DNA of 64,000 bases, from the NCBI GenBank assembly GCA_965232175.1, contig CBDDOW010000006.1, positions 1,315,764-1,379,763 of the forward strand, in the 5' to 3' direction. A program made the translations under genes and the position numbers. This document shows positions 6,737 through 30,801 of this stretch, piece after piece. The stretch comes from Nitrospirales bacterium (GTDB lineage Bacteria > Nitrospirota > Nitrospiria > Nitrospirales > UBA8639). Numbering within the stretch: position 1 is the first letter of the stretch; each line of letters starts with the position of its first letter. The notes under the pieces are model-generated. The model saw only the letters and a list, made by a program, of their open reading frames with translations. It had not been told where the DNA came from and did no database searches.

Positions 6737-6826
6737 CCGCGGAACCCACGGCGACGTCTATCCCCGGTAGTGTTCACAAAAGAAAAATTGGTATCCTTGA
6801 GCAGCCCGGGAGGTCTGTGCATCACC

Positions 6827-7513
6827 ATGATACGAGGCGTTCTTCTGTTGCTGCTGATCCTGGCCGTGTTGGTCGGACCGCAGGTGTGGACCAAATGGGT
6901 CTTCAACAAACATCGCGGGCGTCGCGAGGATTACGCGGGAACGGGCGGCGAGTTGGCCCGGCATTTGCTCGATCGTTTTGAAATGGCGCACGTGCGGGTC
7001 GAGACCACGGAACTCGGCGACCACTATGACCCGCAGGCCAAAGCGGTCCGGTTGCTCCCGGATCACTATCACGGCAAGTCGTTGACCGCGGTGACGGTCG
7101 CGGCGCACGAGGTGGGCCACGCCATTCAGGATCGAACCGGATACGGGCCGTTGCGGGAACGCACGAAACTCGTCCGGTGGGCGCAAGGCGCGGAAAAAGC
7201 CGGGTCCTTCGTCATGCTCGGGATTCCCATCGTCGCCGGGCTGACCCGTTCGCCGGCCGGCGGGCTGCTGGTGTTGCTGGCGGGGCTTGCCGTGATGTCG
7301 ATGGGAGCGTTGGTGCATCTGGTGACCCTGCCCGTGGAATGGGATGCCAGCTTTCGCCGGGCCCTTCCGATTCTCGAGCAAGGCCGGTATGTTCCGCCGC
7401 AGGACATGGACGGCGCGCGAACCATTCTGACGGCCGCGGCGCTGACGTACGTTGCGGCGTCACTGGGCGGGTTGCTGAACGTCTGGCGATGGATCATGCT
7501 CCTGCGCCGGTGA
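6827..7513 (+). CDS. membrane zinc metallopeptidase (YugP-like, HExxH)
   Basis: N-terminal TM segment, HEVGHAIQ zinc motif, and C-terminal TM segments. Confidence 0.65.
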   Translation: MIRGVLLLLLILAVLVGPQVWTKWVFNKHRGRREDYAGTGGELARHLLDRFEMAHVRVETTELGDHYDPQAKAVRLLPDHYHGKSLTAVTVAAHEVGHAIQDRTGYGPLRERTKLVRWAQGAEKAGSFVMLGIPIVAGLTRSPAGGLLVLLAGLAVMSMGALVHLVTLPVEWDASFRRALPILEQGRYVPPQDMDGARTILTAAALTYVAASLGGLLNVWRWIMLLRR

Positions 7514-7559
7514 GACTTGAAGAAGGAAATCGCGAAACTTGCAGTCCAGGCCAGGTGGC

Positions 7560-7883
7560 TTATGAAGCAACACCGCCCTTTGGGCTATTTTCGCCGATTC
7601 CTTCCTGCATATAATCGACAACAATTCTGACAAGCTGTTTAATCGTATCGTTGCACCTATGGTATGTAATGTTTTCTAGAGCTTTGTCTCCATATTGTCG
7701 AATCGCGTCACTAACCAGTGCATGAATAAACGACTGCGTTGTTGCATCAACACCGTCGAAATTCAATATAACCTTTTGATTTTGCGCCAGTGCTGGAAAA
7801 AGTTCGTTACGTCGGATATCCCTTGCGATGTCTTTGTTCTCTGCAAAAGATCCTGCTTTCGCAAAAATATTAATTCGTCTCAT
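7560..7883 (-). CDS. STAS-like DUF4325 domain protein
   Basis: 107 aa. KVILNFDGVDATTQSFIHALVSDAI matches my memory of the STAS-like DUF4325 fold. The ATGA overlap with the upstream ATPase gene suggests coupling. AT-richer than the flanks. Confidence 0.55.
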   Translation of the reverse strand: MRRINIFAKAGSFAENKDIARDIRRNELFPALAQNQKVILNFDGVDATTQSFIHALVSDAIRQYGDKALENITYHRCNDTIKQLVRIVVDYMQEGIGENSPKGGVAS

Positions 7884-8854
7884 GATGTGAACCTCGGTTT
7901 TTTGTATCGTGCCTTCCTGCGTTCTCGTATTTCTTTGCCATATGTTTCTCGGATTAAATCCAAAAGATTCGAGAATTCTCGTGTCCTATCGAGCGCGATA
8001 TTTACGCCAACAACTGTGCCCTTCCAATATGGGTATGTTTCATCCTTTGAGTGCTTATCTTCAAACGGATCGGCGGCTAAAACGGTGCGGCTTGTCGTTG
8101 GTTTTCGGAGTAATTTATACAATGCCTTCCCGCTGTAGATGATAAAGAAATCTCTATTTACACTCGCAATCGATTTGGTAAAAAACAATCCAGCTCCAGC
8201 GTTTTCCGGCGTCCCCCCCTCTCGTTTGGTTGTACCAGTAATCCCGGGCTGTAAGGCAAGCCGAATTGCGTCCATGTCAGTCAAGGCTGGATATGATTGA
8301 TTTATGGCTTTCTTAATGCCAATCCCCGTATCAGCAATCCCAATCCCGACCGAATTGCTCTTTTTGTAATATTGGGCACATATAATTGCGCCATGTTCTG
8401 CCTGCGCATGTTCGATTACGTTTCTGACTAATTCGCTGGCGATATAACGCAGGGTTTGGGCTTGGGCTGGCCGATCTTGAAGATGCAGCAATGGGATCAT
8501 GTTTGTAATAAATTGTGTGGCTTCGTCTGAGTTTTGAATCCTCGACAAGGGGATAAACCGACCGGAGGGGTCATGTTCTAGAACCGTATCCTCTGCTGGG
8601 TCAAGCCCCAAAAAATCCAGGAGCCCCATGCGAATGATGTAATTTTTCGACTTTGACGCGAATTTAATGCATTGAATATGTCGGGTTTCGACCGTTGAGC
8701 CAAGTGCCGCAATCATCGCTAAAACCACTGGATGTACAGCCATCCACTTCTCATTTGCTCTTATTTGAAGTTCCCCCGGCGAGGCTGGGTCAAAATTTCT
8801 CAGAAAATGGTTAATATTACCCAGGAAGGCGCTATTTGGTATATAAATCTTCAT
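7880..8854 (-). CDS. GHKL/histidine-kinase-like ATPase (RsbW/SpoIIAB-like) with unknown N-terminal domain
   Basis: Bergerat-fold motifs: ELVRNVIEHA (N box), IADTGIGI (G1), GAGLFF (G2). The ~130-aa N-terminal region has no recognisable motif. Confidence 0.6.
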   Translation of the reverse strand: MKIYIPNSAFLGNINHFLRNFDPASPGELQIRANEKWMAVHPVVLAMIAALGSTVETRHIQCIKFASKSKNYIIRMGLLDFLGLDPAEDTVLEHDPSGRFIPLSRIQNSDEATQFITNMIPLLHLQDRPAQAQTLRYIASELVRNVIEHAQAEHGAIICAQYYKKSNSVGIGIADTGIGIKKAINQSYPALTDMDAIRLALQPGITGTTKREGGTPENAGAGLFFTKSIASVNRDFFIIYSGKALYKLLRKPTTSRTVLAADPFEDKHSKDETYPYWKGTVVGVNIALDRTREFSNLLDLIRETYGKEIRERRKARYKKPRFTS

Positions 8855-8862
8855 GCTTGAAA

Positions 8863-8910
8863 TTTACCGGGAATCCAGGTATTTTGTCAAATACCTGGAT
8901 TCCCGGTAAA
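8863..8910. repeat. perfect 22-bp inverted repeat (hairpin, 4-nt loop)
   Basis: tttaccgggaatccaggtattt tgtc aaatacctggattcccggtaaa, 9 nt upstream of the ATPase start codon. Confidence 0.95.
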
Positions 8911-9128
8911 CTTACTTGAAAATTCTTAACGGCTCACACGTAATATCTTCATGAATAGGCTCAATAAGGAGCAACGCGCACAAGAGGTATCTGCCTTAGC
9001 TGTGTAGGTGGATTAGCGTAGCGTAATCCAACAATTGCCATTCCGCGGTCCGATGATCGAACAGGTCGAGAAAAGTTCCAAGCTTTGCACGCGCCGGAAC
9101 GTTATCCTTTTAGAACACACACTAATGC

Positions 9129-9365
9129 ATGAGGCAGAACATGAGCGCAATTGTTGGTGATGACGGATCAGGCCGGTATGTCGATCTGGTTGCGAAGTAC
9201 TATGGGGACCCGGAATTTCGGGCACGGATGGATGCGGACCCGGCCGGAACGTTGAAGGCTGAGGGCTTCGAGATCCCCGAGGGCGCGGAGGTGCGAATCG
9301 TGGTGGATTCCGGCAACGCCGTGAACATCGTGCTGCCGCCCTCACCCGGGGACTCAGCCGGATAA
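9129..9365 (+). CDS. NHLP (nitrile-hydratase-like leader peptide)-related small protein without obvious core
   Basis: DPEFRARMDADPAGTLKAEGFEIPEGAEVRIVVDSGNAVNIVLPPSP follows the NHLP leader pattern. It ends ...GDSAG with no Cys/Ser/Thr-rich core. Confidence 0.55.
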   Translation: MRQNMSAIVGDDGSGRYVDLVAKYYGDPEFRARMDADPAGTLKAEGFEIPEGAEVRIVVDSGNAVNIVLPPSPGDSAG

Positions 9366-9429
9366 CCGTCCCGCCCTGGGCGAGGCCAGGCGCCGCCCGA
9401 TTGAGCCTGAATCGAGGAGGGATTCACCC

Positions 9430-9714
9430 ATGCAAACGATTGATGAAATGCGAAAACAGTTGATTGCCAAGTCCACGGACGACCTGGCCTTCCGGAGCCG
9501 GTTGTTGGCGGAGCCCCGGGCCGTGGTCGAGGAGGAGTTCGATATCACGGTGCCGGAGGGCATGGACGTGCGGGTCCTGGAGGACAGCCCCCAGGCGGTG
9601 CACCTGGTGCTGCCGCCCGAGCCCAAACTCAACATGCAGGATATGCGGCAGACGACTGGCGGGACGGGCATGCCCAGTGGCTGCTCGGGTGGCAGCATGA
9701 ATCTCTACGAGTGA
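9430..9714 (+). CDS. NHLP-family RiPP precursor 1
   Basis: Leader is MQTIDEMRKQLIAKSTDDLAFRSRLLAEPRAVVEEEFDITVPEGMDVRVLEDSPQAVHLVLPPEP. It has a GG motif followed by the core TGMPSGCSGGSMNLYE. The RBS gaggaggg is upstream. Confidence 0.8.
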   Translation: MQTIDEMRKQLIAKSTDDLAFRSRLLAEPRAVVEEEFDITVPEGMDVRVLEDSPQAVHLVLPPEPKLNMQDMRQTTGGTGMPSGCSGGSMNLYE

Positions 9715-9775
9715 TGATGGCCCGCGGCTTTTCCGGCGTTGTCGTCGCGCCTCCCTGTCCCGAACGGGGCCGGTT

Positions 9776-12013
9776 GTGACCGGCAACGTTGCGTCTGCGC
9801 CGCAGGGCGTGCGGCATGTGACCGCGGCCGACAAGGGGCTGGTGACCGTTCCGATGCTGGCGCCGCACCTCCGGTTCGACGTCGTGAACTCGGACCGGGT
9901 GCTGTTGGTGGCGGAGGGTGTTGCCGTTGAACTGAATGGGCGGTGCTTTGGGAGCCTGCTGCCGTTGCTCGATGGCAGTCGCACGCGGCGGCAGGTGCTT
10001 GCCGAGCTTGAGAACGGGCATTCGCCGGTTGAGGTGCAGACGGCGTTGGTCCGGTTGGCTTCTTCCGGCTTCGTGGTGTCGGCGGAGTTCAATATGGCGC
10101 CGGAGCTGGCGGCGTTCTGGAGCGCGCTCGGCGCCTCTCCGTCTCGGGCGCAGGAATGCCTTGGCGCGACCCCGGTCGAGGTCCGCGGGGACGATGGCGC
10201 GCTTGCGACGTATCTTGCCGGTCTCGGCGCAGTCGTCGGCGCGGACGCGCCGGGGCTTCGCCTCGTTGTCACCGACGACTATCTGTCGCAACGGCACGAG
10301 GCGTTTCATGCGGCCGGCGGGAACGGCCGGCCATGGTTGCTGGTCAAGCCGACGGACGCGCGAGCCCTGTTTGGCCCGGTCTTCGGTCGGGACGCCGCGT
10401 GCTGGCGCTGTTTTTCACGGCGCCTGTCCGCCACGAGTCAACTGGAGTCCTTCCTGCGCGGGAAATCCGCCCGGCCCGGCTCGTCGCCGCTCGCGGCGGC
10501 GGCCTACGCCCTGGCGGCGGTGGAAATCGCCAAATGGATCGTCTTCGGAGAGGAGGCGCCGCTCCATGATCGCGCGATGTCCGTTGATGCCGCCACCGGA
10601 ACCGGCTTTCACCATGCGCCGCGCTGGCCGCAATGTCCCGACTGCGGCGTGAACGCGGACCCTGCGCCTGTGCCGCCGCAGTTGGGCGCGAGCGCGAATA
10701 CGCTGCGCAACAGCGGCGGGACGAGATCGATTCACCCCGAGGAGACGCTGAGACGTCTTCGCCATCTGGTCGATCCGGTGACCGGTATCGTCACGGACCT
10801 CCGGCGGATCGGGGACCCGTCCGATCCGTGGTTCTTTGTCTATCTGGCCAGCTTTGCCCCGACCGTCCTGGCTTCGAGCTATGCGGAGTTACGCTTCGGG
10901 ATTGTCCGCGGGTCCAGCGCCGGCAAGGGCAGCACGCCCGCCCAGGCGGAAGCCAGCGCGCTCTGCGAGGCGATCGAACGGTATTCGGGTATCCTCCAGG
11001 GCGGGGAGGTCGTGCTGCGGCGCAGGATGGATGAATTCCCCGATGGCGCGGCGTTGCCGCCCAATGCAATCGAACGGTTCAGCGACGTCCAGTTTGAACA
11101 GCCGCCCGACGTGGCGCGTCTCCGGTCAAGGCCGGTGCCGTTCGACGCCTCGCAGGCGCTCGACTGGACGCCGGTCTGGTCATTGACCGCGGAGGCCTGG
11201 CGGTACATCCCCACCCGGCTGCTCTACTATGCCTCGCCGGTGGAGGGGGAAGCCAACCAGTTCCTCGCCAATTCCAATGGCTGCGCATCCGGCAACACGT
11301 TCGAGGAGGCGATTCTCCAGGGCTTTTTCGAGCTTGTCGAGCGCGACGCGTTTGCCTGCTGGTGGTACAACCAGATCCGGGTACCGGCGGTGGACCTGGC
11401 GAGCTTCGACAACCAGTATCTGGCCGAAGCCCCGGCGCGCTACGAACGGGCCGGCCGGGAGATGTGGATGCTCGACGTCACCCACGATCTCGGCATTCCG
11501 GTGTTCGTCGCGTTGTCCCGCTGCGACTCGGGCGGCGAGGATCGCATCCTCTACGGGGTCGGGTGCCATTTCGACCCGCTTGTGGCCGCGTCGCGCGCGG
11601 TCTGCGAACTCAATCAGATCCATCTGGCGGGGACGCTCCCGCAGAAACAGGACAGCGCTCGCGCCGACGAATGGCTGCGCACGGCGAGGATAGCCGACAA
11701 ACCCTATCTTGCGCCGGACCCTGCCACGTCGCTCCGCAAGGCGCCGCCTTCCCGCGCGCCCGGCACGGGCGACCACCGCGACGATATCGCGCTCTGCCGC
11801 CGGATCGTGGAGGATGCGGGCATGGAATTCCTGGTGCTCGACCAGACCCGGGCTGACATTGGTCTGCCGGTCGCGCGGGTGATTGTTCCGGGACTCAGGC
11901 ATTTCTGGCCGAGGTTCGGATCCGGCCGGCTCTACGACGTCCCCGTTGCCATGGGCTGGCGCGCTGCGCCGCTGGCCGAAGCCGAATTCAACCCCGATGA
12001 GCCGGTGTTCTGA
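9776..12013 (+). CDS. fused TOMM-type cyclodehydratase (E1-like leader-binding domain + YcaO domain)
   Basis: 745 aa. The YcaO region is SSAGKGSTPAQAEASALCEAIERYSG...ANSNGCASGNTFEEAILQGFFELVERDAF. The size and architecture resemble PatD/TruD-type heterocyclases. The start could be 9776 or 9854. Confidence 0.8.
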   Translation: MTGNVASAPQGVRHVTAADKGLVTVPMLAPHLRFDVVNSDRVLLVAEGVAVELNGRCFGSLLPLLDGSRTRRQVLAELENGHSPVEVQTALVRLASSGFVVSAEFNMAPELAAFWSALGASPSRAQECLGATPVEVRGDDGALATYLAGLGAVVGADAPGLRLVVTDDYLSQRHEAFHAAGGNGRPWLLVKPTDARALFGPVFGRDAACWRCFSRRLSATSQLESFLRGKSARPGSSPLAAAAYALAAVEIAKWIVFGEEAPLHDRAMSVDAATGTGFHHAPRWPQCPDCGVNADPAPVPPQLGASANTLRNSGGTRSIHPEETLRRLRHLVDPVTGIVTDLRRIGDPSDPWFFVYLASFAPTVLASSYAELRFGIVRGSSAGKGSTPAQAEASALCEAIERYSGILQGGEVVLRRRMDEFPDGAALPPNAIERFSDVQFEQPPDVARLRSRPVPFDASQALDWTPVWSLTAEAWRYIPTRLLYYASPVEGEANQFLANSNGCASGNTFEEAILQGFFELVERDAFACWWYNQIRVPAVDLASFDNQYLAEAPARYERAGREMWMLDVTHDLGIPVFVALSRCDSGGEDRILYGVGCHFDPLVAASRAVCELNQIHLAGTLPQKQDSARADEWLRTARIADKPYLAPDPATSLRKAPPSRAPGTGDHRDDIALCRRIVEDAGMEFLVLDQTRADIGLPVARVIVPGLRHFWPRFGSGRLYDVPVAMGWRAAPLAEAEFNPDEPVF

Positions 12014-12174
12014 TGCTGATACCCGGAAGCGCGCGGTCAGCTCAGGCAAACGCAAGCCCGGGACGCGGGATTGAAAAAAATCTTCCCGGAATGCCAAGGA
12101 ATCCGCTCCGGCTGACGTTTACTATTAATATAAATGACAGAGGCGTCACGTAACTTGGCAAAGGAGGTATGTCA

Positions 12175-12480
12175 ATGCAAACGATGGACGAGATGCGGGC
12201 GCAATTGCTGACAAAATCCACGGACGACCTGGCCTTTCGGAGCCGGTTGCTCGCGGAGCCCCGGGCCGTGATCGAGGAGGAGTTCGGGATCACGGTGCCG
12301 GCGAGCGTGGACGTCCGGGTCATGGAGGACAGCCCCCAGGCGGTACACCTGGTGCTGCCGCCCGAACCCAATCTCAGCCTGGATCAGTTGGATCAGGCGT
12401 CCGGCGGCGGATTTTCTTACACGGCGGAAGATTGGGATCCGCAGGATCAGGGTAGTCATGGCATGTCCGGAACCGAATGA
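12175..12480 (+). CDS. NHLP-family RiPP precursor 2
   Basis: The leader is nearly identical to precursor 1. The core after ASGG is GFSYTAEDWDPQDQGSHGMSGTE. The RBS aaggagg lies 7 nt before the ATG at 12175. Confidence 0.75.
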   Translation: MQTMDEMRAQLLTKSTDDLAFRSRLLAEPRAVIEEEFGITVPASVDVRVMEDSPQAVHLVLPPEPNLSLDQLDQASGGGFSYTAEDWDPQDQGSHGMSGTE

Positions 12481-12651
12481 TGCCGGCGCGCGTTGGCCAT
12501 GACTCATTGTGAGGTCTGTCGTCGGCTGCCCTGCTGCCGCGGGCCGGGACGGGGGATCGAACAAATGTCCCCGGAGGAATCTTCACGGGCTGGTGCCTTT
12601 ATGATAAGGTCGTGATCTTACGGACTTGAGTTCGATGGTGTTTTTTTGCTT

Positions 12652-13188
12652 ATGCAATCGGACGAAATCTTGGCTCAGCGAGTCGTGGCAGGCGATGCCG
12701 ACGCCTTTGTCGAGTTGCTCGATCGGCATTACGGCCGGATCTATCGGATTGGTTTCCACGCGCTGGGCGATGCCGAAGCCGCGGCTGATTTGGCGCAGGA
12801 CATTTGTGTGGCCCTGCCCGCCAAGCTCTCTCAGTTTCGCGGTGATCACGGGTTCTCCAGTTGGCTCTACCGGGTGGTCGTCAACGCGGCAAGCGATGCG
12901 CGACGGCGCAGATCTTCGCGGCAACGCAACGAGGCCCTCTATGCCGAGGCGGAAGCCCTGAGGCGGGCCGGCGAGGTTGCGCGCGCGGAAGAGTTGATGT
13001 GGTTGCGGCAGGCGCTGGATTGCCTTCCCGAGAATCTGCTGGCCACCGCGATTCTCGTCGTGGACCAGGGGCTGCGGCATGCCGACGCGGGCGAGATTCT
13101 GGGTGTGTCTGAAGTGACCGTGTCATGGCGGATGCACCAGATACGAAAGTGCTTGCGCGCCATGGCAGCGAGTGAGGATATGGCATGA
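12652..13188 (+). CDS. ECF-type RNA polymerase sigma-70 family factor
   Basis: Region 2 is DAFVELLDRHYGRIYRIGFHALGDAEAAADLAQDI...SSWLYRVVVNAASD. Region 4 is LPENLLATAILVVDQGLRHADAGEILGVSEVTVSWRMHQIRKCL. Confidence 0.8.
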   Translation: MQSDEILAQRVVAGDADAFVELLDRHYGRIYRIGFHALGDAEAAADLAQDICVALPAKLSQFRGDHGFSSWLYRVVVNAASDARRRRSSRQRNEALYAEAEALRRAGEVARAEELMWLRQALDCLPENLLATAILVVDQGLRHADAGEILGVSEVTVSWRMHQIRKCLRAMAASEDMA

Positions 13189-13634
13189 CCGATCCACTTG
13201 AAAGATTGAAAGCTGCATTCCGCGCCACTGTGCCGGGCGTTGCCGAGGCAGCGCGGAAACGGGCGATTGAGGCTGCGCTGACGGCCTTTGGTCGCCATCG
13301 ACCGGGGAAGACCCGGTCGGCGAACACAACGCACAACAACAAAGGAAAGGATGTGCAGATGCAAACGATTGATGAAATGCGAAAACAGTTGATTGCCAAG
13401 TCCACGGATGATCAGGCCTTCCGGGGCCGGTTGTTCGCGGAGCCCAGGGCCGTGATTGAGGAGGAATTCGGGATCACGGTGCCGGCGAGGGTGGACGTGC
13501 GGATCATGGAGGACAGCCCCCAGGCGGTGCATCTGGTGCTGCCGCCCGAACCCAAGCTCGACATGAAGGAGTTACAGCAGGCCTCGGGAGGCTTTTGCGC
13601 CGAGACCTGTTCTGCGGAGGAGTTGTATGAATGA
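13185..13634 (+). CDS. NHLP-family RiPP precursor 3, in frame with a 58-codon N-terminal extension that overlaps the sigma-factor stop codon
   Basis: The minimal precursor is 13359-13634 (MQTIDEMRKQLIAK...ASGG FCAETCSAEELYE). The upstream in-frame ORF starts with an ATGA overlap at 13185. Confidence 0.7.
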   Translation: MTDPLERLKAAFRATVPGVAEAARKRAIEAALTAFGRHRPGKTRSANTTHNNKGKDVQMQTIDEMRKQLIAKSTDDQAFRGRLFAEPRAVIEEEFGITVPARVDVRIMEDSPQAVHLVLPPEPKLDMKELQQASGGFCAETCSAEELYE

Positions 13635-14680
13635 TAGCGGAAGCTGGTCGGACGCCCTTGCCGGCGGATGAATCGCGGTGTGAAGGCCCGGGGCACGTTG
13701 CAGAGGCGTGGCAGCCTGTGCGGTGCTTCCTGCCGGAGACGCTGGTGGACGAAGCGGGCTGGGGCGGCCTTCTCTCCCTGGTGGCCGGGCTGCCGCGTCT
13801 GGCCATGAACAGCGTGTTCGGGTTCGAAAGCCGGCTTGGGGAACCCCGTCTCGCCGCGGATTTCCATCTGCTTGTGCAATTGGCCACGCCTCTGGCTGAT
13901 TGGTTTCGGCGTTTCCGCGGCGCGGCTGCCGCGGGGCGGCTTCTGAAACGGCTGGGGGACCGCGAGTTCCCCCTGGCGGACCGGGTCCGCAATATCATTC
14001 TCGAATACGATCTCGTAGACGCGTCTCCGGCCGGTCCCCCGCCTGAACCCGGCCTGTTCCTGACCAGGCTCGACATGAAGCCGTCCGTCGCCGACACCGA
14101 CACGCTCCTCCGGGCCGTTCTGGACAGCGTTGAATGGCCGGAGGACGAAACAGAGTGCCGGGCGGTCCGGAAGACCGTAGACACGATCCCACAGAGCGGA
14201 CGTCTTGCCCATCTCGCGGTCCTGCCCGAACGGCGCCCTCGCGCTATCCGTCTTGGCGCCAAGGTCGGCTTGGAGGAACTGCCGGTTTTTCTTCGGGAGG
14301 TCGGCTGGCGTGGCGCGACCCCGGCCACGTGCCTGGCGATGGGGGATTTGCCGGGGATCAGGTCCGAATGCACGATCGCCTTCGACATTGTGGGAGGCAG
14401 GATTTCGCCGCGACTTTCGTTGGAATTTTTCCATGAGCAGCGAATACCCTCCACGCCGCCGGGAGCCTGGCGGGGATTCATCGACCGTCTGGTGGACGAG
14501 GGACTGTGCCTGCCGGACAAGGCGCGCGGGTTGCATGCGTCGTTCATGCCCTGTCAGGGGTTCGACGGGAACGGCTTCTGGACCGTGCGGGGAGGAATCC
14601 ATCATTTCAAGCTTGCGGTCGAGGCGGACGGCGCGGTCTCGGCCAAGGGGTATCTGGTCGTGTTCTACCTGCGTTGCTAG
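13631..14680 (+). CDS. hypothetical protein (349 aa) translationally coupled to precursor 3
   Basis: The ATG overlaps the precursor stop codon (gaatgatag). Amino-acid composition looks protein-like. I recognise no family. Confidence 0.5.
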   Translation: MIAEAGRTPLPADESRCEGPGHVAEAWQPVRCFLPETLVDEAGWGGLLSLVAGLPRLAMNSVFGFESRLGEPRLAADFHLLVQLATPLADWFRRFRGAAAAGRLLKRLGDREFPLADRVRNIILEYDLVDASPAGPPPEPGLFLTRLDMKPSVADTDTLLRAVLDSVEWPEDETECRAVRKTVDTIPQSGRLAHLAVLPERRPRAIRLGAKVGLEELPVFLREVGWRGATPATCLAMGDLPGIRSECTIAFDIVGGRISPRLSLEFFHEQRIPSTPPGAWRGFIDRLVDEGLCLPDKARGLHASFMPCQGFDGNGFWTVRGGIHHFKLAVEADGAVSAKGYLVVFYLRC

Positions 14681-14854
14681 GGGTGGGGTCCTCCCGAACG
14701 CTGGTTCAACGCGACGCGCACGGTCATGCAGGCGTCGGGGAGCCTGAAGCATCCACAAACAGGAGACAGCGTTGAAGTCCCTGGGATTCTGTCGGCGTCA
14801 TGACCGGGAGCCGGGCGGCAGTGGACCGGCCGGGTCGGGCGTACACAGGGTGCC

Positions 14855-16261
14855 ATGAGTTTTTTCGATCTGCCCCGCACGCCGGGGATCCATTGCCGAT
14901 TGCGCCGGGGGCACGATCTCTCCCGTTCCCGGGACGGCGGGTCCTTCACGCTGCGGCGGCCGGGCGGCGAATCCGAGCCGTTCGTATCGTATGAGGAAGC
15001 GTTCGCTGCCGCGCTCGACCGTCTGTCCGCGGGCGCGCATGCCTCCGAGCTGAGAAACCTTGCGCTCGGGGCCGGCGGACCGGCGCGGGCGGCCGCTTTC
15101 ATGATGTTGCTCCGGCGGCTGGCGGCTGCCGGTCTGGTCGAGTTTCCTCTTCTCGACGAGGCGGGAGAGCGGGCTGTGCTGTTGCCGCAGATTGCCACGT
15201 TCGAGCCTGCGCTCGCGGAGGAGCCGGCGCCGGACATCAGCCTCGACCGGTTCGCCTTCATCCGACGCGACGACCGGGGCTGGCTCCTGGAGTCGCCGCT
15301 GGTGGGGGCGCGGCTGTCGTTTTCCGATTCGGCGGCGCTGGACTCGCCTGTTGTGCGCCGCGCGCTCGCCGCGGCCGGGTTTCTTGAACAACGCGATGAC
15401 GATCCCCGGCATCGGGAAGCGCTCGATTTGTGGGAGTTCCACGATCTCGCTTTCTACCGTCATCATCGCGGGGGCTGGCATCAGGATCCCATGGGCGGGA
15501 TCTATCCCCATCTGGGAAGGATCGAGTCGCCGCCGGCGATCCGTTCGCCCTGGCCCGGGACACGCATCACGCTCCCCGTGGCCGTCGACCGGCCAAGCGC
15601 GGCCCTTGCCGACGTGCTGGAGCGGCGCGCTTCGATTCGGGCCTACGATCAGCGTCACCCTATTACGCTCAACGACGTCGGCGCGCTGTTCGACCGCGCT
15701 GTCCGCATCCGTGGCGACCTTGTCGTCTCCGGTACGTTCGGAGGCGGACCGGTCCGCACCGGGGCGCCGAGGCGGCCGTATCCCACCGGAGGCGGGTGCG
15801 GCGAGCTGGAGATTTACCTGGCCATCGACCGGGCCGCGGATATCGAGACAGGGCTCTATCACTACGATGCCGCGGACCACGCACTCGTGCGGCTCTGCGA
15901 CCGAACGCCCGCGGTCGCGGCGCTGCTCGCCGAAGCCCGGGATTCTGCCGGCGGCATCGACGAGACGCAGGCGCTCGTCATCGTGGCCGCGCGGTTTGCC
16001 CGGGTCATGTGGAAGTACAGCGCCATTGCCTATGCGCTCATCCTGCGCGATACCGGTGTTCTTTACCAGACGCTCTATCTGGCCGCGACCGACCTCGGAC
16101 TCGCTCCGTGCGCGCTCGGCAACGGCAACGCCGCGGCCTTTGCCGAGGCCACGGGCCTGGACCCGTTGATCGAGGGCAGCGTCGGGGAATTCCTTCTGGG
16201 CGGCCGGCCGACCGGCCCGGCGATGGCCGCGGCCGAGCAGCGGGCCGGCCGGGACGCATGA
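14855..16261 (+). CDS. SagB-type (nitroreductase-fold) azoline dehydrogenase
   Basis: ERRASIRAYD...RPYPTGGGCGELEIYLA....GLYHYDAADHAL...ALGNGNAAAFAEATGLDPLIEGSVGEFLLG resembles the SagB/ThcOx family. Confidence 0.75.
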   Translation: MSFFDLPRTPGIHCRLRRGHDLSRSRDGGSFTLRRPGGESEPFVSYEEAFAAALDRLSAGAHASELRNLALGAGGPARAAAFMMLLRRLAAAGLVEFPLLDEAGERAVLLPQIATFEPALAEEPAPDISLDRFAFIRRDDRGWLLESPLVGARLSFSDSAALDSPVVRRALAAAGFLEQRDDDPRHREALDLWEFHDLAFYRHHRGGWHQDPMGGIYPHLGRIESPPAIRSPWPGTRITLPVAVDRPSAALADVLERRASIRAYDQRHPITLNDVGALFDRAVRIRGDLVVSGTFGGGPVRTGAPRRPYPTGGGCGELEIYLAIDRAADIETGLYHYDAADHALVRLCDRTPAVAALLAEARDSAGGIDETQALVIVAARFARVMWKYSAIAYALILRDTGVLYQTLYLAATDLGLAPCALGNGNAAAFAEATGLDPLIEGSVGEFLLGGRPTGPAMAAAEQRAGRDA

Positions 16262-16356
16262 CGGCTGTCCGCGCCTTGCCGGGCGGATCGAGCGCCGGGA
16301 CGCGCCCGGCGGCGTTCAGCGCACCCGGCCGTTGCTGATGGGGAACGGTGCCTGAT

Positions 16357-25561: not shown

Positions 25562-26362
25562 TCATTTCAGCAATCCATCAATGCTGACGTTGAACATCGC
25601 TTCAAGGAACGCTTTGGTCTTGGGCTGGTTATCCAGGGAGGCACGGACAAGCTGTGTGGTAAAGAGTCCGGCTTTGGGCTTCCATTTGGCTTGGTCCCGT
25701 GTGACGGTCGCAGCCCACTTCACCGGAGCGACGTATTCGCTGTGTATCTGTTTACCATGTAAACGGTAATCGAGCAGCCACTTCCTTTTGATGATCACGT
25801 CGCTGATCGGTTTGGCATGGTCAGTGACTGTTCCAACTCCCACAAATCCGCGTCCTTTGAGATAAGCGGCAACCACATCACCGGGCTTGAATCGAAGTAT
25901 GGCTGCAAGCCACCGGCCACGGTTGCTCGCTGAAATAAAGCCGATGGTTCGGAAGTCGTCCCAATTTCGGCTTGTTGGATCTTCGCCGACGTTGTAGTAA
26001 TAGAGTCCTGGCTCGTAGTCGAAGCCAGGCAAGTCACGGTGAAGCTTATTATGGGGTCTGAATTTCTTGGCATAGTGGCCTGATGCGACGTTGGACAGGC
26101 GGTCTCCGAGCTTCCACAAGAGGGTCTTTTCGACCAGAAAGGCGTCGTATTCGGAGAGGTTGCGGGCAATGACCCGGACTATCGGATTGAGGCCGTCTTT
26201 GCGAATGGCGCGAATGCGGCGGGCTTTGGTGGAATCGGAGACATCAGACAAATGCGAGTCTTTGCGCGCCCCTTTGCCTTTGCCAATATAGAACTCCTCG
26301 AAGTTTCGAGGATCGATATAGACATACACGTAAAAGTCGTTGGAAAGGACTCGTCTAGCCAT
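25562..26362 (-). CDS. GIY-YIG nuclease domain fused to a C-terminal PUA/EVE-like domain (tentative)
   Basis: N-terminus FYVYVYIDPRNFEEFYIGKGKGARKDSH carries the GIY...YIG motifs. The C-terminal NWDDFRTIGFISASNRGRWLAAILRFKPGDVVAAYLKGRGFVGVGTV resembles PUA-like reader domains. Confidence 0.6.
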   Translation of the reverse strand: MARRVLSNDFYVYVYIDPRNFEEFYIGKGKGARKDSHLSDVSDSTKARRIRAIRKDGLNPIVRVIARNLSEYDAFLVEKTLLWKLGDRLSNVASGHYAKKFRPHNKLHRDLPGFDYEPGLYYYNVGEDPTSRNWDDFRTIGFISASNRGRWLAAILRFKPGDVVAAYLKGRGFVGVGTVTDHAKPISDVIIKRKWLLDYRLHGKQIHSEYVAPVKWAATVTRDQAKWKPKAGLFTTQLVRASLDNQPKTKAFLEAMFNVSIDGLLK

Positions 26363-26725
26363 GCAACACCGTGCCCGACCAGACAAGGTTGGGCCGTGTT
26401 CGCTCCACCAAGGGATACTTGGAGGCCCGCTTATTTACCTGTAGTGAAACAGCACTTCCCGATGAAGGAGCGACCCTCATCCGGATGGTGCAAGGCTCTT
26501 GTATTGGGCGGCGACCCGATCAAGATAGCCCCCAGTGGAGCGAACGGGTCGAGTATAGCGTGAGCGGTGAACAGAGTAAATAGTGCGGGTGGGATAGGCT
26601 ATAGTGTGTATATTGGTGGTGCCGAGGACCGGAATCGAACCGAGTCGCTTATTTGAACGTTACCAAAACTTCACATTTGCTTGCGCCTCTAGGTATATAA
26701 TTCCCCCGACAGGTAACAAGTTAGG
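26363..26725 (-). ncRNA. candidate structured RNA leader, copy B
   Basis: Inverted copy of 24391-24751, directly 5' of the GIY-YIG gene. It contains an extra ~29-nt tRNA 3'-half-like insert (26617-26648). Confidence 0.45.
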
Positions 26726-27363: not shown

Positions 27364-30300
27364 ATGTTTCTTTCTAGACGTCAATTTTTAAAAGTGACGA
27401 CCGGAACGGTGGCGGCAGTGGCGCTGGCGGACAAAGCCTTGGCCCTGACTGCGCTGCAACCGGTTGTCGAAGTGGGCAATCCGCTGGGCGAGTATCCTGA
27501 TCGCGCCTGGGAGCGGGTGTACCACGATCAGTATCGGTATGATTCGTCGTTTACGTGGGTTTGCTCCCCGAACGACACTCACGCCTGCCGCGTGCGTTCC
27601 TTCGTGCGGAACGGTGTGGTGATGCGGGTCGAGCAAAACTACGACCACCAAACCTACGAAGACCTCTACGGCAATCGCGGGACGTTCGCTCACAATCCGC
27701 GGATGTGCTTGAAGGGGTACACGATGCATCGCCGGGTGTACGGGCCCTATCGGTTGAAAGGCCCCTTGATGCGCCGTGGTTGGAAAGCCTGGATGGATGC
27801 CGGAAGCCCGGAATTCACTCCGGACGTCATGAACAAATACAAATTCACGTCCCGCTATCTGGATGACATGCTGCGGGTGAGCTGGGATACGGCGTTTACG
27901 TACCTGGCCAAAGCCATGGTCATCATCTCGGAGCGGTACAGCGGCGAAGCCGGCGCCCGTCGTTTGCGGGAGCAAGGCTATCCGCCGGAAATGATCGAGA
28001 TGACCAAGGGTTCCGGCGTGCGGTGCATGAAGTTCCGCGCGGGGATGCCCATCCTGGGCGTGATCGGCAAGATGGCCGTCACCCGGATGAACGGTGGCTG
28101 CGGCGCGTTGCTCGACCACTGGATCCGGAAAGTGAAGCCAGCCCAGGCCCAAGGCGGCCGGTACTGGTCGAACTACACCTGGCACGGGGACCAAAACCCG
28201 GCGCATCCGTTCTGGTCCGGGGTGCAAACCTCTGACAACGACCTGAGCGACATGCGGTTCGCAAAGTTGAACACAAGCTGGGGCAAGAACTTCGTCGAAA
28301 ACAAAATGCCGGAAGCGCACTGGAAACTCGAAAGTATCGAGCGCGGGGCGCGGGTGGTCGTGATCACGCCGGAGTACAACCCGACGGCGTATCGGGCCGA
28401 CTACTGGATTCCGGTTCGGCCGGAGACGGACGCGGCGTTGTTCCTGGGCGCCTGTAAGATCATGTTCGACGAGAACATGCATGACCATGATTTCTGCTCG
28501 GCCTATACGGACATGCCGATTCTGGTCCGTACGGACACGCTGCAATATCTTGATCCGCGCGACGTGATCAAGGGCTATTCATTGCCGGACTTCTCCAAGA
28601 CCTATTCGGGGAAAGTGCAAACCCTGAATCCGGCGAAGATTGCGCGTCTCGGCGGTTTCATGGTGTGGGACACCAATAAGAACCAAGCCGTGCCGATTCA
28701 CCGCGAATTGGTGGGATGGCACTACAGGAACAGCGGGATCGAAGCAGCGTTTACCGGGACCTACCGGGTGAAGTTGCTGAACGGCCGGGAAGTTGACGTG
28801 GCACCGATCTTCCAGTTGTATCAGGTCCACTTGCAGGACTATGACCTGGATACGGTCCACCAGATCAACCGGTCCCCGAAGGACCTGATCGTCCGCTGGG
28901 CCAGAGATTCAGGCACCATCAAACCGGCGACGATTCACAACGGGGAAGGCACGAACCACTACTTCCACCAAACCATCATTGCGCGTGGCGCGGCGATGGT
29001 GTTGATTATCGCCGGGAACGTCGGGAAGTTCGGGACCGGGCAACATACCTGGGCCGGGAACTACAAAGCGGGGATCTGGAACAGCACCCCGTGGTCCGGC
29101 GGTGGGTTGGGCACGCACACCGCGGAGAATCCGTTCAAGATCACGACGGATCCGAACGCACACGGTAAGGAAGTGCACGTGCGTGGCTACTACTATGGTG
29201 AAGAGGTGGCTTACTGGAACCATGGGGATACGGCGTTGATCGTGAACACGCCGAAGTATGGGCGCCGGGTGTTTACCGGAAAGACGCACATGCCGACCCC
29301 GACCAAGTTCCGGTGGGTGGCGAACGTGAACGTGTTGAACAACGCCAAACACCACTATGACATGGTCAAGAACGTGGACCCGCACATCGAATGTATCGTC
29401 ACCCAGGATATCGAGATGACCTCGGACGTGAACCATGCCGACGTTGCGATGGGTGTGAATACATGGATGGAGTTCACGTATCCCGAACATACGGCGACGG
29501 TGTCGAATCCGTGGTTCCAGGTGTGGAAAGGGGGCATCCGGCCCTTGTATGACACCAGAAACGACCTGGATACGACCGCCGGCGTGGCCTCCAAATTGAC
29601 CGACATGACGGGCGATGGGCGGTTCCGGGATTACTTCAAGTTCGTCTACGACAACCGGGTGGACGTGTACGTGCAACGGTTGTTGGATGCCAGTTGTACG
29701 GGGTACGGGTACAGCGTTGACACCATGCTCAAGTCCGAGAAGGGCTGGATGGTGCTGTGCCGGACGTATCCACGGCAACCGTTCTGGGAAGAGACGAACG
29801 AATCGAAGCCGCAATGGACGCGGACCGGACGGTATGAAAACTACCGGACGGAGCCGGAAGCCATTGAGTACGGTGAAAACTTCATTTCGCACCGGGAAGG
29901 GACGGAAGCCACTCCATACCTGCCGAACGCGATTATGACGACGAACCCGTACGTACGGCCGGATGACTACGGTATTCCTATCACGGCGCAGCACCATGAC
30001 GACAAGACGGTGCGGAACATTGCGTTGCCGTGGCAGGAAATCAAACGGTACTCCAACCCGCTGTGGGAGAAGGGGTATCAATTCTACTGCGTGACGCCGA
30101 AGACGCGGCATCGTGTACACAGCCAATGGTCAGTGAACGACTGGGTGCAGATGTATGAATCGAACTTCGGTGACGCGTATCGGATGGACAAACGGACACC
30201 GGGTGTGGGTGAGCATCAATTACACATGAACCCACAATCGGCGAAAGACCGGGGCATCAACGACGGTGACTATGTGTACGTTGACGGCAATCCGGTTGAT

Positions 30301-30801
30301 CGGCCGTACCGAGGATGGAAGCCGAGTGACCCGTACTACAAAGTGGCTCGGTTGATGATTCGGGCGAAGTACAACCCGGCGTTCCCGTACCACGTGACCA
30401 TGGCGAAGCACGCGCCGTACGTCGCAACCGCGAAATCCGTGAAGGGCCATGAAACCCGACCGGACGGACGGGCCATCGCAATGGATACGGGGTATCAATC
30501 CAACTTCCGGTATGGGGCGCAACAGTCCTTCACCCGTGACTGGTTGATGCCGATGCACCAAACCGACTCACTGCCGGGCAAACACGCAGTGGGCTGGAAG
30601 TTCAAATTCGGGTATCAGGTGGACAACCATGCGGTCAACACCACTCCGAAAGAATGTCTGATGCGGATCACCAAAGCAGAGGACGGTGGTATCGGCGGCA
30701 GGGGTCCATGGGAACCAGTCCGGACCGGGTTTACGCCTGGGCAGGAAAATGAGTTCATGATCAAGTGGCTCAAAGGCGACCACATTAAGATCAAGGTGTA
30801 A
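27364..30801 (+). CDS. nxrA: nitrite oxidoreductase alpha subunit, periplasmic (Nitrospira) type
   Basis: Tat signal MFLSRRQFLKVTTGTVAAVALADKALA. It is a 1145-aa molybdopterin (DMSO reductase family type II) enzyme, followed directly by nxrB. Confidence 0.9.
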   Translation: MFLSRRQFLKVTTGTVAAVALADKALALTALQPVVEVGNPLGEYPDRAWERVYHDQYRYDSSFTWVCSPNDTHACRVRSFVRNGVVMRVEQNYDHQTYEDLYGNRGTFAHNPRMCLKGYTMHRRVYGPYRLKGPLMRRGWKAWMDAGSPEFTPDVMNKYKFTSRYLDDMLRVSWDTAFTYLAKAMVIISERYSGEAGARRLREQGYPPEMIEMTKGSGVRCMKFRAGMPILGVIGKMAVTRMNGGCGALLDHWIRKVKPAQAQGGRYWSNYTWHGDQNPAHPFWSGVQTSDNDLSDMRFAKLNTSWGKNFVENKMPEAHWKLESIERGARVVVITPEYNPTAYRADYWIPVRPETDAALFLGACKIMFDENMHDHDFCSAYTDMPILVRTDTLQYLDPRDVIKGYSLPDFSKTYSGKVQTLNPAKIARLGGFMVWDTNKNQAVPIHRELVGWHYRNSGIEAAFTGTYRVKLLNGREVDVAPIFQLYQVHLQDYDLDTVHQINRSPKDLIVRWARDSGTIKPATIHNGEGTNHYFHQTIIARGAAMVLIIAGNVGKFGTGQHTWAGNYKAGIWNSTPWSGGGLGTHTAENPFKITTDPNAHGKEVHVRGYYYGEEVAYWNHGDTALIVNTPKYGRRVFTGKTHMPTPTKFRWVANVNVLNNAKHHYDMVKNVDPHIECIVTQDIEMTSDVNHADVAMGVNTWMEFTYPEHTATVSNPWFQVWKGGIRPLYDTRNDLDTTAGVASKLTDMTGDGRFRDYFKFVYDNRVDVYVQRLLDASCTGYGYSVDTMLKSEKGWMVLCRTYPRQPFWEETNESKPQWTRTGRYENYRTEPEAIEYGENFISHREGTEATPYLPNAIMTTNPYVRPDDYGIPITAQHHDDKTVRNIALPWQEIKRYSNPLWEKGYQFYCVTPKTRHRVHSQWSVNDWVQMYESNFGDAYRMDKRTPGVGEHQLHMNPQSAKDRGINDGDYVYVDGNPVDRPYRGWKPSDPYYKVARLMIRAKYNPAFPYHVTMAKHAPYVATAKSVKGHETRPDGRAIAMDTGYQSNFRYGAQQSFTRDWLMPMHQTDSLPGKHAVGWKFKFGYQVDNHAVNTTPKECLMRITKAEDGGIGGRGPWEPVRTGFTPGQENEFMIKWLKGDHIKIKV

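Follow-up and report, generated by a model that had tools for sequence, protein, structure and literature searches.

A putative self-contained two-gene kinase-substrate operon of the VapKSC and CapKS kind in a Nitrospirales genome

Kinase-substrate switches and the proteins of the cassette

VapKSC and CapKS are kinase-substrate switches with a PIN toxin or a repressor as output, and single-stranded DNA (ssDNA) activates them (Chambers et al., EMBO J 2026, PMC13373217). VapK, a STAS-GHKL kinase, phosphorylates the antitoxin VapS, a STAS protein with a short C-terminal helix, and frees the PIN toxin VapC. The system provides about 2 logs of protection against phage Bas42. CapK phosphorylates a conserved serine of CapS, a STAS protein with a winged helix-turn-helix (wHTH) domain, which represses adjacent immune operons. 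The acceptor is the serine right before a phenylalanine, DSS54F in E. roggenkampii and DAS58F in V. cholerae. An aromatic residue, F54 in VapK and W68 in CapK, has been implicated in the activation by ssDNA (PMC13373217). A cassette of two genes, located in a 64-kb window of a Nitrospirales genome (contig CBDDOW010000006.1; the window is the whole stretch of DNA that was analysed), encodes a GHKL kinase and a DUF4325 protein, named K and S in the following. A two-gene K+S form is not mentioned in the available text of PMC13373217, and the catalogue given there is restricted to loci with all three vap genes.

Sequence comparisons indicate that the cassette is an operon of the CapKS/VapKSC kind that comprises just two genes, stands alone and has been transferred horizontally. 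It forms a third architecture, K plus S only, because it lacks a defining feature of both VapKSC and CapKS. The homology of K and S to VapK and VapS and the autonomy of the pair are considered highly probable. The original prediction had proposed an uncharacterised toxin-antitoxin (TA)-like or phage-defence module. The closest relatives, VapKSC as a TA system of phage defence and CapKS, agree with the functional part of this proposal. The term uncharacterised does not hold, since the kind was described in 2026 (PMC13373217). For the two-gene form, without VapC or wHTH, a TA-like or defence role is what we infer from these relatives.

Both genes were found as originally described, as overlapping open reading frames (ORFs) on the minus strand. 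Including stop codons, they extend over 7880-8854 (324 aa) and 7560-7883 (107 aa). The ATGA overlap indicates, as far as the sequence can tell, a translational coupling of K and S. The features of the coding region are as follows.

7515-9036, no strand: low-GC, acquired segment common to related Nitrospirales genomes (BLASTN and GC profiles)
7883-8854, minus strand, stop codon 7880-7882: K gene, 324-aa kinase, homologue of VapK and CapK (ORF and profile match to VapK)
8480-8854, minus strand: alpha/beta domain at the N-terminus of K (aa 1-125), homologue of the STAS-like sensor domain in VapK
7985-8467, minus strand: GHKL (Bergerat-fold) kinase domain of K, aa ~130-290 (Pfam, invariant residues, fold match)
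7883-7984, minus strand: C-terminal helix of K, aa ~291-324, with a nearly invariant basic tail (…KEIRERRKARYKKPRFTS) at the end
7880-7883, minus strand: ATGA overlap of 4 nt, K stop and S start (same overlap in 76 of 78 S-bearing homologous loci)
7563-7883, minus strand, stop codon 7560-7562: S gene, 107-aa DUF4325 (STAS-like) protein, homologue of VapS (Pfam and hhalign)
7731-7739, minus strand: codons of S for T49, Q50 and S51; predicted phospho-acceptor Ser51 within the motif TQSF

The sequences of VapK, VapS and VapC for the comparison were obtained from the supplementary models of PMC13373217. The K-family profile aligned with VapK over both domains (hhalign, probability 98.9%, E 3.6e-17, 217 columns; hmmsearch, 68 bits). 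The alignment spans residues 20-251 of K and 36-268 of VapK, at an identity of only about 18%. With VapK as query, tblastn matched the K genes of homologous loci at 1e-9 to 1e-15. The N-terminal domain of about 130 aa, uncharacterised according to the original prediction, proved homologous to the STAS-like sensor domain of VapK (hhalign). It aligns to VapK residues 36-140 and has a beta-alpha-beta-alpha pattern in the AlphaFold2 (AF2) model. The K homologue of Marinitoga phage MPV1 matches Pfam STAS at 1.5e-5. No Pfam match was obtained in a scan of 37 diverse N-terminal domains, no match in a PDB profile search, and no similarity between the N-terminal profile and the S family (hhalign, probability 0.4). 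The designation STAS-like is based solely on the homology to VapK, the MPV1 homologue and the secondary structure prediction. A helix-turn-helix (HTH) was not found by Pfam in K or in the 37 diverse N-terminal domains; the alpha/beta domain starts directly.

As predicted, the 324-aa protein contains the three Bergerat motifs, ELVRNVIEHA, IADTGIGI and GAGLFF, which lie on columns invariant in 52 homologues. Invariant residues are E141 and N145 in the N-box, D175, G177 and G179 in the G1 box (D175-G179), and G220 and G222 in the G2 box (G220-G222). The closest PDB folds are SpoIIAB structures (1thn, 1til and 1l0o; Foldseek, probability 1.0, TM-score 0.62-0.67 on target), in agreement with the predicted pairing of an RsbW/SpoIIAB-like GHKL kinase with a DUF4325 protein. 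As to the family models expected for the pair, DUF4325 scored above its cut-off, while HATPase_c (2.2e-5) and HATPase_c_2 (4.5e-5) remained slightly below the gathering scores. NCBIfam gave weak matches only, to the histidine-kinase ATP-binding region, and PDB sequence searches with the single proteins yielded noise only (SopE, 0.03; chemoreceptor, 0.08). The AF2 model of K (predicted local distance difference test, pLDDT, 76.7; predicted template modelling score, pTM, 0.82) comprises the N-terminal alpha/beta domain, the GHKL domain and a long C-terminal helix. This helix covers residues 288-316; E311, R312, R316, P320 and F322 are conserved in the C-terminal region. In two near-identical metagenomic loci (L090, 382-1197; L091, 4001-4816), the K frame ends at about 272 codons and the similarity runs to residue 322. 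The early stop may represent an inactivated copy or a sequencing error.

S matches Pfam DUF4325 at 4.6e-10, and VapS itself belongs to the same family (2.7e-17). The S family aligned with VapS at a probability of 94.2% and E 1.2e-7 (hhalign), and a PDB profile search retrieved 9z7o_A, 'Escherichia VapS'. In tblastn, VapS gave no match, being too divergent for a pairwise search. The AF2 model of S (pLDDT 90.9) shows one STAS-like domain with weak matches to the STAS domains of RsbS, SpoIIAA and SLC26. Residues 99-107 were modelled with low confidence (pLDDT below 50), and their length and sequence differ among homologues. A wHTH is absent from S: Pfam finds DUF4325 alone, and the 107 aa form a single STAS-like domain. 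T49, Q50, S51 and F52 are invariant in 44 homologues. Helix alpha-2 begins at residue 50 of the model, with TQS51F at its N-terminus. The column of VapS S48 aligns with Q50 (hhalign), flanked by the invariant T49 and S51. Ser51 is predicted to be the phospho-acceptor, with Thr49 as alternative, because the CapS acceptor serine precedes a phenylalanine and TQS51F is invariant at the start of helix alpha-2.

The cassette and vapKSC share the gene order K then S, the organization as a stand-alone operon and the occurrence in many phyla (PMC13373217). K and VapK both consist of a STAS-like N-terminal domain and a GHKL kinase domain without HTH, and both systems have a small DUF4325 protein (about 110 aa) in which helix alpha-2 begins with a conserved Ser/Thr. 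In contrast to vapKSC, the operon contains no vapC (PIN) gene; the best tblastn match of VapC across the 64-kb window and 99 loci had an E of 1.9. The VapS C-terminal helix (residues 94-116), which reaches the VapC active site and inhibits VapC (PMC13373217), has no counterpart in S. K (324 aa) exceeds VapK (302 aa) by the basic tail, while VapK stops 13 residues past the last shared strand. Further, the cassette has a palindromic operator and a predicted leaderless promoter, and the available text of PMC13373217 describes no operator for vapKSC.

With CapK-CapS, the cassette has in common a GHKL kinase with a STAS domain and a STAS substrate with a serine before phenylalanine (DSS54F in CapS, TQS51F in S). 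Palindromes overlap the promoter in both, and CapKS is autoregulated (PMC13373217). However, the N-terminal HTH of CapK and the C-terminal wHTH of CapS are both absent from the cassette. The CapS half-site is TTAA, located before capS and the downstream operon (PMC13373217), whereas the boxes of the cassette have the consensus TACCGGGAWTCCCGGTA and lie before K. An immune operon is not located downstream of the cassette; the downstream gene is convergent, and the neighbours across about 90 loci are heterogeneous.

A further relative was detected with the PADLOC models, a check suggested by the original prediction. Residues 26-249 of K match positions 31-248 of the 1750-position DrmA (DISARM) model PDLC02567 at 3.1e-18. 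The same N-terminal region of DrmA (model positions ~5-265) was also matched by every phage and plasmid homologue of K that was tested. By implication, some genomes encode a fusion of a K-like STAS-GHKL module with the DISARM helicase DrmA. In that DrmA subfamily the module would be part of a large helicase, whereas here it is a free protein with S as partner.

Operator and promoter upstream of K

The original prediction gave the palindrome upstream of K no role. It proved to be part of a conserved operator-promoter region with the following elements.

8861-8890, minus strand: sigma-70-type promoter, -35 TTGACA (8890-8885), 18-nt spacer, -10 TAAATT (8866-8861)
8865-8881, no strand: proximal operator box TACCGGGAATCCAGGTA, 17-bp palindrome that differs from the consensus at 1 position
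8892-8908, no strand: distal operator box TACCTGGATTCCCGGTA, immediately upstream of the -35 hexamer

In a promoter scan upstream of K, this promoter gave 10 of 12 matches, and its -10 hexamer ends 6 nt before the ATG at 8854. The two boxes bracket the -35 hexamer; the proximal one occupies the promoter spacer and extends into the -10 hexamer. They are the sole matches to the consensus with up to 3 mismatches in the 64 kb, with 0.21 expected by chance. The 25-nt 'inverted repeat' upstream of K was considered as a terminator or the end of a mobile element. Both readings were rejected, as it resolves into the two palindromic boxes around the -35 hexamer, whose position relative to the K start codon is kept in other phyla.

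The operator is conserved beyond Nitrospirales. At least one box occurs within 100 nt upstream of K in 77 of 90 homologous loci from other phyla, two boxes in 37, and the position relative to the K start codon is maintained. In the fetched loci, exact boxes are found immediately before K, and the only exceptions are second copies in L068 and L084, about 280 nt farther upstream. More distant homologues carry different palindromes at the same position. The protein that binds the palindrome is most probably encoded by the cassette, as K, S or a K-S complex, because the operator moves between phyla and co-varies with the cassette.

A clear pair of -35 and -10 hexamers was detected in 61 of the 90 loci. 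In 48 of these, the -10 hexamer ends 5-8 nt before the start codon, most frequently 6 nt. A motif similar to a Shine-Dalgarno sequence was present in only two of the 90. The bicistronic mRNA is predicted to be leaderless, because the -10 hexamer lies 5-8 nt from the start codon and Shine-Dalgarno-like motifs are rare. A second promoter layout was observed in a subset of loci (L043, L048, L051-L053, L056, L073, L077, L080 and others). There, a half-site ATTCCCGGTA directly precedes the start codon, and one full box extends into a -10-like element, GGTAAAAT, located about 45 nt upstream. This layout would give an mRNA with a short leader, not a leaderless one.

Metatranscriptome assemblies of a related community contain a copy of about 93% identity that spans the cassette. 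At window positions 7513/7520, the contigs (runs X11, X17 and X20) have 284 extra bases between the stop codon of the Zn-peptidase gene and the end of S, which match the longer spacer of loci L002 and L003.

Distribution, insertion site and selection

A protein search yielded 2,978 clusters at 90% identity. The best 120 are all about 320 aa long, 61-90% identical, and originate from Omnitrophota, Elusimicrobiota, Chlamydiota, Saganbacteria and others. Homologues across phyla reach 61-67% identity. An exhaustive search gave 2,571 clusters at 50% identity. A metagenome scan with the K alignment confirmed 484 relatives among the first 600 candidate stretches, and a scan of genome contigs with a single sequence found only 7 loci. 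The S gene is present in 78 of 80 loci with space for a downstream gene, with the 4-nt overlap in 76 of them. Covalent K-S fusions exist as well; phrog_5816 is a phage family of such fusions.

A recurrent third gene was not found: none of the Pfam families was shared by more than 3 of the 123 immediate neighbours. The neighbours include genes as different as recA, gyrA and smpB on the one hand and PIN, nucleotidyltransferase and AAA genes on the other, with a PIN domain in just two of the 123. Same-strand genes close behind S are mutually unrelated, and none was vapC-like in a reading by eye. The predicted absence of a sigma factor and a phosphatase was confirmed. Neither a sigma factor nor a PP2C phosphatase is encoded in the ORFs flanking the cassette or belongs to the 25 commonest of the 155 Pfam families of the 123 neighbours.

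K-like genes without S were observed on the Phaeobacter plasmid pP129_f (L011, 1732-3576) and on a Bradyrhizobium plasmid (L098, 5590-12354). One is located behind a gene for a protein with a HEPN/RES N-terminal domain, another beside a DUF4365 gene and a large DEAD/DEAH helicase gene. K-like modules thus appear to pair with other conflict-system proteins too.

The base composition sets the cassette apart. Estimated by eye as 40-45% GC against more than 60% in the flanks, it was computed as 44.4% for 7515-9010 and 60.8% for the remainder of the 64-kb window. The segment is the lowest-GC stretch of 1.5 kb and lies about 3.5 standard deviations (sd) below the mean (1.5-kb GC windows across the 64 kb, mean 0.602, sd 0.045). 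Across 65 loci, the GC content of the cassette is on average 5.5 points under that of the flanks, and at least 5 points lower in 32. In the window, the difference to the flanks is 20 points. The horizontally acquired look noted in the original prediction was confirmed.

In four Nitrospirales assemblies, the cassette is located at the same site beside the Zn_peptidase_2 and SelO genes, with 90-93% protein identity and a GC content of 42-45%. A conserved synteny in Nitrospira with normal composition had been named as evidence against the acquired module. The conserved site was indeed found, but the composition is aberrant and the adjacent cargo differs. On one side, the window contains the Zn_peptidase_2 gene (6770-7513), the predicted metallopeptidase, and the SelO gene, both identified via the Pfam-annotated orthologous locus L012. 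The Zn-peptidase gene is convergent with S and follows its stop codon after 46 nt; nothing else lies downstream. The shared block ends at 8999-9036 (BLASTN). Relatives then carry other cargo or rejoin the window at about 16400, at an HNH gene. Depending on the genome, the far side of the cassette carries nothing, a DUF4238 gene, an IS3 element with a methyltransferase-HhH-GPD gene, or, in the window, a 7.3-kb peptide-precursor cluster resembling those for ribosomally synthesized and post-translationally modified peptides (RiPP-like). In this respect, the site is comparable to a small island of variable or defence genes. None of the four related Nitrospirales loci has the cluster at 9036-16355, which is therefore a separate insertion at the same variable site.

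The DUF4238 gene (L002, 4386-5348) matches the PADLOC model DUF4238-Pers at 3.4e-35. Locus L003 (2398-4362 and 4535-5673) encodes a 654-aa fusion of an N6/N4 methyltransferase with HhH-GPD, together with two ORFs read by eye as IS3-type transposase genes. On the far side of the cassette in the window, precursor-peptide and large biosynthetic ORFs start from 9129, divergent from K and separated from it by an intergenic region of 274 nt. The precursor-like ORFs 9129-9365, 9430-9714 and 12169-12480 have a repeated core in common, and a 745-aa ORF is located at 9776-12013.

Three relatives carry a duplicated 3' fragment of Zn_peptidase_2 beyond the cassette (L012, 7588-7830; L002, 5722-5806; L003, 5759-5806). 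The fragment in L012 comprises 80 aa (PF04298). In these relatives, the end of the target gene is thus present as a direct repeat on both sides of the cassette. In the window, the 9036-16355 insertion has replaced the fragment. The duplication in the relatives suggests that the cassette inserted into the end of the Zn-peptidase gene. A 12-nt exact direct repeat AGGCCGGTATGT that flanks the low-GC segment (7381-7392 and 9170-9181) was considered as insertion scar and rejected as probably due to chance. By estimate, about 0.4 such repeats are expected in 3.5 kb; moreover, one of the precursor ORFs in the separate insertion contains the second copy.

More distant relatives of the cassette are carried by phages and plasmids. 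K+S pairs are located beside integrases and in accessory regions of Streptococcus phage LYGO9, Marinitoga phage MPV1 and Burkholderia phage vB_E188, where the pair adjoins BrnTA. Another pair adjoins insertion sequence (IS) elements on an Alicyclobacillus plasmid. In Francisella phage KIRK, a gene for a 293-aa hypothetical protein is followed directly by a DUF4325 gene near the integrase. Composition, site and distribution together identify the cassette as horizontally acquired.

The ratio of nonsynonymous to synonymous substitution rates (dN/dS) within Nitrospirales is 0.18-0.34 for K, 0.06-0.22 for S and 0.06-0.14 for the flanking gene. Both genes are therefore considered functional and under purifying selection, not decaying. 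The dS of the cassette is 0.08-0.25, about half of that of the adjacent core gene (6827-7513) in the same genomes (0.25-0.40; L001-L003, L012). Because of this difference, the cassette may have been exchanged more recently than the lineages split; alternatively, it may be codon-constrained.

The second-lowest GC patch of the window (~49%) is located at 25562-26386 on the minus strand and encodes a 274-aa ORF. Its N-terminus (…YVYIDPRNFEEFYIGKGKG…) appears GIY-YIG-like by eye. The ORF sits upstream of a 1145-aa ORF (27364-30801) that begins with a Tat-like signal and was read by eye as a molybdopterin oxidoreductase (NxrA-like).

Proposed switch, rival explanations and significance

The proposed mechanism follows the logic of the closest relatives. 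At rest, S alone or together with K would repress the operon via the palindromes and keep the system off. A stress signal would activate K; by analogy with CapK and VapK, this would be ssDNA from DNA damage or phage replication. K would then phosphorylate S at Ser51 and thereby change the binding partners of S. The output is placed in the pair itself, e.g. in the action of K on host targets or in the basic tail, or in a conserved host partner, because neither a VapC nuclease nor a wHTH-repressed neighbouring operon is present. Growth arrest or abortive infection would be the expected output. Phosphorylation, activating signal, operator-binding protein and output are all inferred steps of this scheme. 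The whole chain, a stress- or phage-responsive, self-regulated K-S switch with an output of the growth-arrest type, is given about an even chance.

One version makes the GHKL kinase itself the effector of a widespread, autonomous abortive-infection or TA system, with a K-S complex that lacks a classical DNA-binding domain repressing at the 17-bp palindromes. On sensing ssDNA, K would escape from its pseudo-substrate S and phosphorylate conserved host targets, or act via its basic tail. This version is tentative and regarded as unlikely. If true, it would provide the first GHKL-kinase toxin, a new mode of DNA binding by a STAS/GHKL complex, and a leaderless mRNA that is expressible in any host.

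Several findings weigh against the proposed switch. It has no nameable output, and an autoregulated sensor without effector is an incomplete mechanism. A DNA-binding domain is not recognisable in K or S (Pfam, AF2 model of S, N-terminal scans). VapK F54 aligns with Ala39 of K, and an invariant Trp37 lies two residues upstream, so that the sensing of ssDNA by K is uncertain. Links to defence genes are anecdotal, and the immediate neighbours in metagenomic loci are mostly housekeeping genes. PADLOC has no model for the K+S pair, apart from the N-terminus of DrmA. A scan of IMG/VR viral contigs with the K alignment yielded no close relatives. The metatranscriptome contigs may include DNA and define no transcription start, which makes them weak evidence of expression.

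A selfish TA addiction module without a role in phage defence is likewise unlikely. K would most plausibly be the toxic component and S the one that neutralises it, and the complex would repress its own promoter. The cassette resembles type II TA operons in its two small, overlapping, co-transcribed genes, the palindromic operators on its own promoter, its low GC content and its scattered single-copy insertion among unrelated genes in chromosomes, plasmids and prophages. It adjoins BrnTA pairs on an Acinetobacter plasmid and in Burkholderia phage vB_E188, and VapS is a proven antitoxin (PMC13373217). However, neither a toxin nor a DNA-binding antitoxin domain is recognisable in the cassette, and some plasmids carry K-like genes without S. 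The covalent K-S fusions fit a cis-regulated sensor better than a labile antitoxin. No GHKL kinase is known to act as a toxin.

A sensor acting in trans on an effector encoded elsewhere, e.g. a distant VapC-like nuclease or another S-binding protein, is distinctly improbable. DUF4325 proteins partner with PIN.4/VapC nucleases in other operons, and three-gene vapKSC operons are present in Nitrospira and Elusimicrobia genomes. Yet the two-gene unit moves between phyla together with its operator, and an unlinked dependency would be lost with each transfer. No VapC-like sequence was detected in the window or the 99 loci, which represent only a part of each genome.

It is very doubtful that the cassette is a CapKS-like transcriptional controller of neighbouring cargo, here the divergent RiPP-like cluster from 9129. 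CapK and CapS regulate adjacent operons via palindromes that overlap the promoters (PMC13373217). The operator region 8861-8908 faces the precursor genes across the 274-nt intergenic region, and the symmetric operator also yields promoter-like matches on the plus strand. The four Nitrospirales loci, though, retain the cassette and lack the cluster 9036-16355. Neighbours differ in nearly all of the ~90 loci; of 58 downstream neighbours, 25 have the opposite orientation. S, with its STAS-like fold only, has no wHTH, and the 64-kb window holds no additional copy of the box.

An ordinary partner-switching module like RsbW/RsbV or SpoIIAB/SpoIIAA, with a sigma factor of the host as its target, is highly improbable. 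The kinase fold, closest to SpoIIAB, the STAS-like substrate, with its weak matches to RsbS and SpoIIAA, and the kinase-then-substrate logic are the same, and the homologues are labelled 'anti-sigma regulatory factor' by JGI. However, neither a sigma factor nor a PP2C phosphatase is adjacent, here or in the neighbour census. K has an extra N-terminal STAS-like domain and a C-terminal tail, and is far nearer to VapK than to anti-sigma kinases. The SpoIIAB and RsbW modules are core regulators, whereas the cassette is mobile and accessory, with aberrant composition, a patchy distribution across phyla and a presence in phages and plasmids. A non-functional remnant of a vapKSC operon after loss of vapC, suggested by the third gene of the nearest characterised system that is missing here, is barely credible. 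Of 80 loci, 78 have the two-gene form, in which the ORFs are intact and the promoter-operator is conserved. Both genes are under purifying selection, and K has a conserved C-terminal tail without equivalent in VapK.

The reading as a self-contained K-S switch has consequences for the family. CapKS and VapKSC established the pair of GHKL kinase and STAS substrate as a portable sensor of DNA damage and phages that can be plugged into different outputs (PMC13373217). While the kind has thus been known since 2026, the effector-less variant is new. The K+S family is apparently much larger, unusually conserved across phyla, present in temperate phages, and consists of the sensor pair alone. The leaderless promoter and the conserved operator may account for expression of the cassette when it is transferred between distant hosts. 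For annotation, DUF4325 genes beside genes for an 'ATP-binding protein' can now be named VapS-like and VapK-like. If the pair works alone, the kinase or the STAS protein has an unrecognised activity, which would extend the repertoire of bacterial immune and stress responses.

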